Below, one piece after another: positions 54,659-55,531 of a stretch of 64,000 bases of DNA. Under the pieces are notes generated by a model. The model saw only the letters and a program-made list of their open reading frames with translations, was not told where the DNA came from and made no database searches. Positions within the stretch are counted from its first letter, which is position 1. Each line of letters begins with the position of its first letter. The DNA is taken from the NCBI RefSeq assembly GCF_024502345.1, contig NZ_JALDNN010000001.1, one strand, 5' to 3'. A program made the translations under genes and the position numbers. This stretch comes from Escherichia coli. Lineage in GTDB: Bacteria > Pseudomonadota > Gammaproteobacteria > Enterobacterales > Enterobacteriaceae.

Positions 54659-54811
54659 TTAGTTAATCAGCTTATCAATCTCGGCAAGGGGTAAATTTGC
54701 CATCTCTGCAACGTCTTCCCGAGACATTCCTTTATTCAGAAGACGCAGGACGAATTCTTGCCTTTCCTCCTGTCTTCCCCTCTCTTCAAACCACTGCGCC
54801 AGCGTCATCAT
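54659..54811 (-). CDS. putative intragenic RpnS-like small protein (in-frame internal start within rpnC)
   Basis: In-frame ATGATG at 54811..54806 immediately preceded by GGGAGGGGAG (strong SD-like) inside the rpnC reading frame; would encode the 50-aa C-terminal domain MMTLAQWFEE…EIDKLIN. Confidence 0.4.
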   Translation of the reverse strand: MMTLAQWFEERGRQEERQEFVLRLLNKGMSREDVAEMANLPLAEIDKLIN

Positions 54812-55531
54812 AGACTCCCCTCCCGTTTCCCTGTCTCTCAGCACACCATAAAACAAATCCGCTTGTTCAGTATGACCGCGTTGCAGCATATAGTTTTGCA
54901 TGGCAACTAACTGACTTCCGCTAGTGTACCCTTCGTCAATCAGCGTGACCAGTTGCTCCAGCAATAACATTAAGTCGCGCTGGCGAATATGCTTTTGCAG
55001 TAGTTCGAGAATCGCAATCCGCCGGTGCTGCATGATTTCGTCATCCGGTGTGATAGTGATATCCACCAGCGGAAAAGGACTGTTATAGACGCGTCGCGCC
55101 AGCTCCGGCGAGTAAAACATATCAAACCAGCACATTGAGAGCGGATAAGGTGTGGTCTCGCCCTGATAAAACAGTATCGGCACCACCAGCGGCAGCTTAT
55201 CGTGATCCGCCTCCAGATGCCGGTGCATGGCAGCAATAGAATAACGCATCATGCGAAAGGCCATTTTCTTATCCGGCTTGCTTTGGTGTTCAATCACAAC
55301 ATGCAGATAACCGGGATTGCCCTGCATTTGCACGGAATAGAGCACGTCCGTGCTGTGTCCTTTCAGGCTCTCTTCAATGAAACTCCCCGACTCTAAATGA
55401 AGCGTGTTGAGGTCACAAAGTTCTCGTAATTCCACTGGCAAATGTATCTCCAGAAAGTCGCGAGCCGTCTCCGCGTGCATTAAAAATTGTTTAAACACTG
55501 CATCATGCGGTGTGGTACTCGGTGCATCCAT
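54659..55531 (-). CDS. rpnC: recombination-promoting nuclease RpnC (YadD; YhgA-like PD-(D/E)XK family)
   Basis: 290-aa ORF on the opposite strand between panC and panD, the position of yadD/rpnC in K-12; N-terminal nuclease-like block …DVLYSVQMQGNPGYLHVVIEHQSK; C-terminal RpnS-like tail. Confidence 0.85.
   Translation of the reverse strand: MDAPSTTPHDAVFKQFLMHAETARDFLEIHLPVELRELCDLNTLHLESGSFIEESLKGHSTDVLYSVQMQGNPGYLHVVIEHQSKPDKKMAFRMMRYSIAAMHRHLEADHDKLPLVVPILFYQGETTPYPLSMCWFDMFYSPELARRVYNSPFPLVDITITPDDEIMQHRRIAILELLQKHIRQRDLMLLLEQLVTLIDEGYTSGSQLVAMQNYMLQRGHTEQADLFYGVLRDRETGGESMMTLAQWFEERGRQEERQEFVLRLLNKGMSREDVAEMANLPLAEIDKLIN

Follow-up and report, generated by a model that had tools for sequence, protein, structure and literature searches.

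Two studies, Meydan et al. 2019 and Weaver et al. 2019, are reported to have been the first to map the internal in-frame start (iTIS) of rpnC in Escherichia coli K-12. In the retapamulin ribosome profiling of Meydan et al. (2019), yadD (i.e. rpnC) is listed with a conserved in-frame iTIS and with enhanced synonymous-site conservation. A functional account of the Rpn family is given by Zhong et al. (2023, PNAS, PMC10400941), and in the portions of that paper drawn on here all five rpn genes of K-12, including rpnC, show an iTIS in both Onc112 and retapamulin ribosome profiling, and dRNA-seq places a transcription start site (TSS) inside every rpn gene, giving rise to a short transcript that is the more abundant one. 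The same portions describe how the small RpnS proteins block the toxicity, SOS induction and DNA cleavage of the long RpnL proteins, RpnA, RpnB and RpnP2 being included among those studied. For rpnC of K-12 itself, SPA-tagged RpnC-S was seen by immunoblotting and RpnC-S blocked SOS induction by RpnC-LS in a dinD-lacZ assay; loss of the small C-terminally tagged product upon mutation of the SD (Shine-Dalgarno)/ATG is, within these portions, published for rpnA, with the product itself detected for rpnC. Dodecamer repeats are also described there, and with RpnC the addition of one four-residue repeat to S or L alone abolishes inhibition. Anti-phage defence is, as far as these portions of the paper go, shown only for the plasmid-encoded RpnP2, and toxin release on phage infection or at alkaline pH is proposed for RpnA and RpnP2. 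A search of the literature collection used here for Rpn work after 2023 yielded no papers other than the PNAS article and the commentary on it. The production of two proteins from one ORF, of which the short one is the C-terminal part, is shared by rpnC with Cas10d/Cas11d of the type I-D CRISPR systems and with arcB; however, the short product of rpnC antagonizes the long one (toxin-antitoxin), whereas the short products of Cas10d/Cas11d and arcB complement.

Against this background, we analysed an rpnC allele in a 64-kb stretch of E. coli chromosomal DNA (hereafter the window), the relevant features of which are collected in Table 1. The rpnC ORF is 100% identical to the annotated rpnC of E. 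coli FDAARGOS_944, as is approx. 1.4 kb around the site of interest; the locus lies between panD and panC, and the order panD-rpnC-panC-panB is the same as in K-12. RefSeq names the product of the 290-residue ORF recombination-promoting nuclease RpnC, and the protein matches the NCBIfam model TIGR01784 ('Rpn family') with 268.8 bits (cutoff 52.1), whereas PADLOC-DB v2 holds no model matching RpnC. In comparison with RpnC from MG1655 the protein shows 95% identity overall, and its N-terminal part is identical at 239 of 240 positions. By these sequence comparisons RpnC is assigned to the Rpn (YhgA-like) family as the orthologue of K-12 rpnC, and RpnC-L is the predicted toxic nuclease form, of the PD-(D/E)XK type. 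The hairpin found in the window is conserved downstream of rpnC in K-12 and in O157.

Table 1. Coordinates of the features of the rpnC locus within the window
Feature	Coordinates	Strand	Basis
rpnC (yadD) full-length CDS, 290 aa (RpnC-L)	54659..55531	minus	ORF list, RefSeq identity
Nuclease domain, Pfam PF04754 (Transposase_31/YhgA-like), residues 7-207	54911..55513	minus	E = 2.2e-87
Internal Shine-Dalgarno element GGGAGGGGAG	54824..54815	minus	Direct sequence reading
ATGATG (Met241-Met242 of rpnC), predicted iTIS for RpnC-S	54806..54811	minus	In frame with rpnC ORF
Nested ORF rpnC-S, 50 aa (49 from second ATG) plus stop	54659..54811	minus	
Spacer of 68 nt, rpnC stop to rpnC-Ss	54591..54658	minus	Sequence reading
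rpnC-Ss, stand-alone 69-aa paralogue of the RpnC tail	54381..54590	minus	Intact ORF, own start
12-nt tandem repeat, 2.1 copies (KGFQ-KGYQ in helix 1 of RpnC-Ss)	54511..54535	minus	TRF
G+C-rich hairpin, 12-bp stem, likely shared terminator of convergent rpnC-Ss and panC	54290..54320		Terminator-like site scan

A preliminary description of this DNA had pointed to a purine run directly before two in-frame methionine codons inside rpnC and to a 50-residue C-terminal product that would start there, and both statements proved exact in coordinates, reading frame and codon count. The purine-rich element and the ATGATG are separated by TCT (54814..54812 on the minus strand), such that the GGAGG core is placed 7 nt ahead of the first ATG and GGAG is placed 6 nt ahead of the second. 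From the first ATG to the stop there are exactly 50 codons (MMTLAQWFEE...EIDKLIN; the complete product is MMTLAQWFEERGRQEERQEFVLRLLNKGMSREDVAEMANLPLAEIDKLIN), and from the second ATG there are 49. The Met residue that is conserved in homologues aligns with the second ATG (54808..54806), and hence RpnC-S may be 49 residues long. The RpnA-S chain that has been crystallized is likewise of 49 residues.

The strength of this SD element relative to chance was assessed by pairing positions −18 to −4 of each ATG in the 64-kb window, on either strand, with the 16S anti-SD. Both internal ATGs of rpnC gave −10.8 kcal/mol and ranked third and fourth of 1999 ATG contexts (top 0.2%), whereas the SD pairing of the annotated rpnC start was −3.5 kcal/mol and that of the start of the downstream small ORF (rpnC-Ss) was −5.3 kcal/mol. 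A weak full-length SD together with a very strong internal one fits an excess of antitoxin over toxin. A different explanation would be that the purine run is incidental to the coding of a flexible Thr-Gly-Gly-Glu-Ser linker, that the Met residues are ordinary ones and that a separate protein is not made. Gly and Glu codons are indeed SD-like in themselves: over the full set of 9216 synonymous ways in which RETGGES can be encoded, the codon-usage-weighted mean SD energy was −7.1 kcal/mol, and 7.8% of them (3.7% when weighted by the codon usage of the window) had an SD at least as strong as that observed. These data show that a Gly-Gly-Glu peptide predisposes to an SD and that the actual codon choice nevertheless lies in the upper tail, the linker being encoded by GGA GGG GAG; the use of the rare Gly codons GGA and GGG speaks against an incidental origin. 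Because the codons for Gly-Gly-Glu are inherently SD-like, the outcome of the synonymous-recoding test is only moderately extreme, and the test is only moderately persuasive alone; the comparative evidence is stronger. In addition, local mRNA folding around the iTIS was compared with that of shuffled controls and was in no way unusual (z = 0.05), on account of which a structural switch controlling the iTIS was dropped as a candidate. When the minus strand upstream of the iTIS was scanned with a simple sigma-70 consensus, no promoter-like sequence came to light, so that the internal promoter reported in the literature is not recognizable by consensus.

Within the species the site is close to invariant. 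A search of 5426 complete E. coli genomes recovered the 85-nt stretch around the iTIS from 5424 of them at ≥95% identity, and in all of the sampled E. coli alleles the GGGAGGG core and the ATGATG are unchanged, the sole variation in the SD element being G, A or C at position 54817, which gives a Glu, Lys or Gln codon respectively. Since variation within E. coli is not deep enough to demonstrate constraint, we compared ten plasmid-borne Rpn homologues with 44-55% identity, taken from Salmonella, Yersinia pestis pMT1, Klebsiella, Vibrio campbellii, Providencia and IncI plasmids. The linker peptides upstream of the start differ among these homologues (e.g. QHGDAL, QHEDKL, EHEERF and KHQEVI), but at the aligned position each of the ten has an in-frame start codon, which is GTG in Providencia and ATG in the others, and all ten have GGAG, GAGG or AGGAGG 6-9 nt 5′ of that aligned start. 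Both the SD-like element and the start codon thus hold their position in homologues with quite different linkers, which is not what would be expected if the purine run followed from the coding of the linker.

Turning to the relationship with the K-12 gene, the 29-nt SD/ATGATG context of MG1655 is identical to that in the window. K-12 rpnC, with its RpnC-L and RpnC-S products, is the same gene in the same position with the same SD/ATGATG context, and its tail belongs to the same family with four-residue repeats. Given this identical context and the near-identity of the N-terminal parts noted above, the experiments performed with K-12 transfer to the window allele, in which we infer initiation, the small protein and the inhibition of RpnC-L from the K-12 literature. 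The preliminary description had stated that Rpn genes are reported to contain an internal in-frame start giving a small inhibitor of the full-length nuclease and had read the locus as a toxin with a nested antitoxin; the former is what is reported for K-12 rpnC in the portions of Zhong et al. (PMC10400941) drawn on here, and the latter is supported by the same work, carried out with a gene whose SD/ATGATG context is identical. That a small protein and profiling initiation peaks are reported for a gene of identical sequence also argues against an SD that merely accompanies the linker, and we consider that explanation highly improbable.

The same observations bear on the idea that the internal SD is an elongation pause at a domain boundary, which would aid folding of the nuclease domain and would not be a start at all. 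The element does lie where the Pfam nuclease domain (residues 7-207) gives way to the tail, and a co-translational folding pause would make sense at a domain boundary. However, Onc112 and retapamulin trap initiating rather than elongating ribosomes, and the profiling signal lies at the rpn iTIS; furthermore, a start codon at the right distance is conserved in all of the homologues examined, and a pause site would not need one. A pause is therefore barely credible, and both explanations without a second protein are disfavoured because of the conservation of the start codon in divergent homologues and the initiation-specific profiling signal. We conclude, with a probability of approx. 0.9, that the site is the iTIS of rpnC that makes RpnC-S, an antitoxin against RpnC-L, so that one gene supplies both toxin and antitoxin.

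In the mechanism that we propose, RpnC-L would be a DNA endonuclease that damages the host chromosome, with SOS induction, when left unchecked, and its own weak SD would keep it scarce. Ribosomes would bind GGGAGGGGAG and start at Met241 or Met242, and RpnC-S would be made probably mostly from a shorter transcript starting inside the gene, as reported in K-12. The resulting RpnC-S would be a helical protein of 49-50 residues, identical to the C-terminal tail of RpnC-L, and its long first helix would pair with that identical tail of RpnC-L and thereby block the nuclease. Which S recognizes which L would depend on how many four-residue repeats helix 1 contains. Were the toxin to be released, for which phage infection or alkaline pH are possible triggers, DNA would be cleaved; this step is speculative even in the source paper.

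To characterize the tail, a profile was built from 15 RpnC-type tails and searched against the PDB, in which it matched the 49-residue RpnA-S chain 7TH0_A end to end with E = 5.9e-10, profile positions 1-60 aligning with chain residues 1-45. RpnA-S (PDB 7TH0) resembles RpnC-S in size (49 compared with 49-50 residues) and in its match to the tail profile, although it belongs to a different paralogue. The AF2 model of the 50-residue product consists of helices throughout (mean pLDDT 78.6): the first is long, and after it comes a pair that resembles a helix-turn-helix (HTH). Designed PPR and repeat proteins outranked 7TH0 in the profile search, but none of them had an individually significant stretch and we regard these matches as repeat-summed noise. 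A single-sequence phmmer search of the PDB with the 50-residue tail did not find RpnA-S, its only matches being to a designed 'CAP repeat' protein and, weakly, to HTH domains. Similarly, a Foldseek search of the PDB with the AF2 model gave nothing significant, 7TH0 being outside the top 50; its best matches were the HTH domains of resolvase and KorB (E > 0.5), which agree with the HHpred HTH remark of Zhong et al. but are no evidence of membership. The Pfam family DUF4351 (PF14261) matched RpnC weakly at residues 250-287 (E = 0.04); this family is said to cover stand-alone RpnS genes. The homology of the tail to RpnA-S is thus a direct observation from the profile search, as are, from the comparisons above, the anatomy of the site, the strength of its SD, its identity with K-12 and its conservation in homologues.

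The tails vary in length among alleles, with 50, 56, 58, 60, 62, 66, 74 and 78 residues represented, and they differ by units of the KGIE/EVRQ type. The tail of the window allele is the shortest of those sampled, with 50 residues and two units in its helix-1 segment (RGRQ-EERQ), whereas that of K-12 has 60 residues and four units (KGIE-KGIQ-QGRQ-EVSQ).

The window differs from K-12 in one further respect, namely the presence downstream of rpnC of a stand-alone Ss copy, which K-12 lacks. A second, extragenic antitoxin-like copy had been noticed in the preliminary description, and this is borne out by a real ORF that is 68% identical to the 50-residue tail, with an eight-residue gap and a nearly identical helix-turn-helix part, and that matches the published rpnC-Ss. 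The arrangement is depicted in Figure 2(I) of Zhong et al., with rpnE-ypaA in their Figures 2(H) and 2(I) (PMC10400941). The internal start, RpnC-S and the rpnC-Ss arrangement are consequently already known and are not new. In rpnE-ypaA, as in rpnC-Ss, a small ORF immediately downstream of an rpn gene has a start codon of its own and encodes a tail copy; however, expression has been shown for YpaA (RpnE-Ss), in K-12, whereas rpnC-Ss in the window is known from its sequence, and in the portions of Zhong et al. (PMC10400941) drawn on here neither expression nor function is reported for RpnC-Ss. The model TIGR01784 matches the C-terminal part of rpnC-Ss. RefSeq is inconsistent in its labels for this ORF: the counterpart in TUM1857 is an 'RpnC/YadD family protein' (WP_000404123.1), the one in FDAARGOS_944, which is 100% identical, is a pseudogene fragment, and other genomes have it as 'transposase' or 'hypothetical protein'. 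PADLOC gave a weak match of this small ORF to RmrA (E = 5e-4).

Among complete E. coli genomes, 1555 of 5426 (29%), ST131 included, carry the downstream module, recognized by the spacer and the Ss start. Two copies of CCAGATAATT lie in the spacer of the window, at 54635..54626 and at 54610..54601, together with a weak SD, AAGGGA. In all nine of the two-copy strains sampled the spacer is 68 nt long and the rpnC-Ss ORF is intact with its own ATG, and the scan for terminator-like sites found none in the rpnC/rpnC-Ss spacer; an intact ORF, a constant spacer and the absence of an intervening terminator suggest that rpnC-Ss is probably co-transcribed with rpnC. The 12-nt repeat of rpnC-Ss corresponds to the four-amino-acid repeat unit, and repeat numbers vary from strain to strain.

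One reading of this second copy, implied by the preliminary description, is that RpnC-Ss is a redundant cognate antitoxin that also neutralizes the resident RpnC-L. Its 68% identity with the tail, with a nearly identical helix-turn-helix part, its probable co-transcription and the expression of the analogous RpnE-Ss in K-12 all fit such a role. Nevertheless, the variable segment of helix 1 differs in length between S and Ss in all nine two-copy strains, by −8 to +24 residues (−8 in the window, in which the segment of RpnC-Ss is eight residues longer than that of the intragenic tail), and the type of repeat differs as well, being EVRQ/RGRQ in S compared with KGFQ in Ss. As a single four-residue repeat added to S or L of RpnC alone was enough to abolish inhibition, this mismatch argues against a simple redundant antitoxin, and by the one-repeat rule RpnC-Ss would not be expected to neutralize the neighbouring RpnC-L. 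A functional test of RpnC-Ss is not among the experiments reported in the portions of Zhong et al. (PMC10400941) drawn on here. Taken together, we regard a redundant antitoxin as rather unlikely.

The relationship of the single-copy alleles to rpnC-Ss is relevant in this context. In K-12 and O157 the tail, with its KGIE/KGIQ repeats, and the adjoining 3′ flank find their alignment partner in the Ss copy of the window and not in its intragenic tail, as would be expected if the K-12 form arose by fusion or deletion. This fits a route mentioned by Zhong et al. (PMC10400941), in the portions of which drawn on here rpnSs copies can vanish when they are deleted or become fused to the N-terminal domain, with the speculation that RpnL may drive such recombinations. 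We therefore put forward, tentatively and as a possibility that we hold to be on the improbable side, that rpnC-Ss acts as a recombination donor, namely a non-cognate tail cassette of mismatched length that would recombine homologously with the 3′ end of rpnC, such that the toxin tail and the nested antitoxin would be swapped together and the L/S specificity would be re-keyed. If this were true, swaps of the cassette would perhaps allow escape from phage-encoded mimics, and the single-copy alleles of the K-12/O157 type would be the products of such recombination. Only the specificity-switching function would be new in this proposal.

For E. coli, the internal start of rpnC is a matter of annotation and not of discovery: standard pipelines give one product for rpnC and have no consistent label for rpnC-Ss, and most E. 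coli annotations in consequence hide a two-in-one toxin-antitoxin module that probably serves in defence. The question that the window sharpens is the role of rpnC-Ss, a gene carried by approx. 29% of complete genomes and mismatched in repeat length with its neighbour in every strain sampled (n = 9).

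In the E. coli strain BH212 (NZ_CP029239.1), the whole nuclease domain of rpnC has been lost through an IS2 insertion, the end of which precedes, by approximately 45 nt, the internal SD (Shine–Dalgarno) sequence that serves the nested antitoxin RpnC-S. The rpnC remnant of this strain comprises only this SD, the ATGATG start codons and a 60-aa tail ORF, and therefore just the antitoxin part has been kept. An IS3-family element was found at the neighbouring gene in E. coli AF10 (NZ_OZ546911.1), where it is inserted in and truncates rpnC-Ss, the stand-alone tail paralogue downstream of rpnC, soon after the start of this copy, and where rpnC and its internal translation start are intact.

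Only one base of the internal SD, at window position 54817 (minus strand), is polymorphic among the sampled alleles, being G, A or C, and these variants are nonsynonymous, specifying Glu, Lys or Gln respectively at residue 240. A change at this position, with A or C present in ST540, 25POL, O157, D10 and GPEC606, weakens the GGAG closest to the start codons, and the alleles concerned may have a lower RpnC-S output or a preference for one of the two ATGs.

The rpnC stop and the rpnC-Ss start are separated by a spacer of 68 nt, a length shared by all nine of the two-copy strains sampled. The spacer contains two copies of the 10-nt sequence CCAGATAATT, 25 nt apart, and this pair could be the scar of a duplication or could serve as a binding site. 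E. coli O157:H7 TT12A is without the rpnC-Ss copy. In the stretch from the shared terminator hairpin to panC, this strain also carries an extra insert of approximately 200 nt with palindromic stretches. The insert is missing from K-12 and the window and possibly represents a small repetitive extragenic element.

RefSeq/PGAP labels for one and the same rpnC-Ss ORF disagree between strains: in CP53 and the window-identical strain it is annotated as a pseudogene fragment (‘missing N-terminus’), in D10 and 25POL as a ‘transposase’, in several strains as a ‘hypothetical protein’, and in TUM1857, GPEC606 and others as an ‘RpnC/YadD family protein’. Residues 21–67 of its product weakly match the PADLOC model RmrA over the C-terminal part of the model (positions 290–336 of 357), which may reflect a common helix-turn-helix-like tail in another defence protein.

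Features at rpnC and rpnC-Ss (L, comparison loci from other E. coli strains, own coordinates)
Feature	Location	Strand	Remark
IS2 insertion, rpnC	L006 1..1422		BH212
IS3-family element, rpnC-Ss	L025 557..1007		AF10
rpnC-Ss ORF, labels compared	window 54381..54590	(-)	
rpnC-Ss ORF, labels compared	L001 3641..3820		
rpnC-Ss ORF, labels compared	L003 3647..3844		
rpnC-Ss ORF, labels compared	L007 1585..1752		
rpnC-Ss ORF, labels compared	L008 1519..1722		
Extra insert, palindromic stretches	L009 ~1500..1725		O157:H7 TT12A
CCAGATAATT, two copies	window 54635..54626 and 54610..54601	(-)	
Weak RmrA match	window 54384..54590	(-)	PADLOC, E = 5e-4
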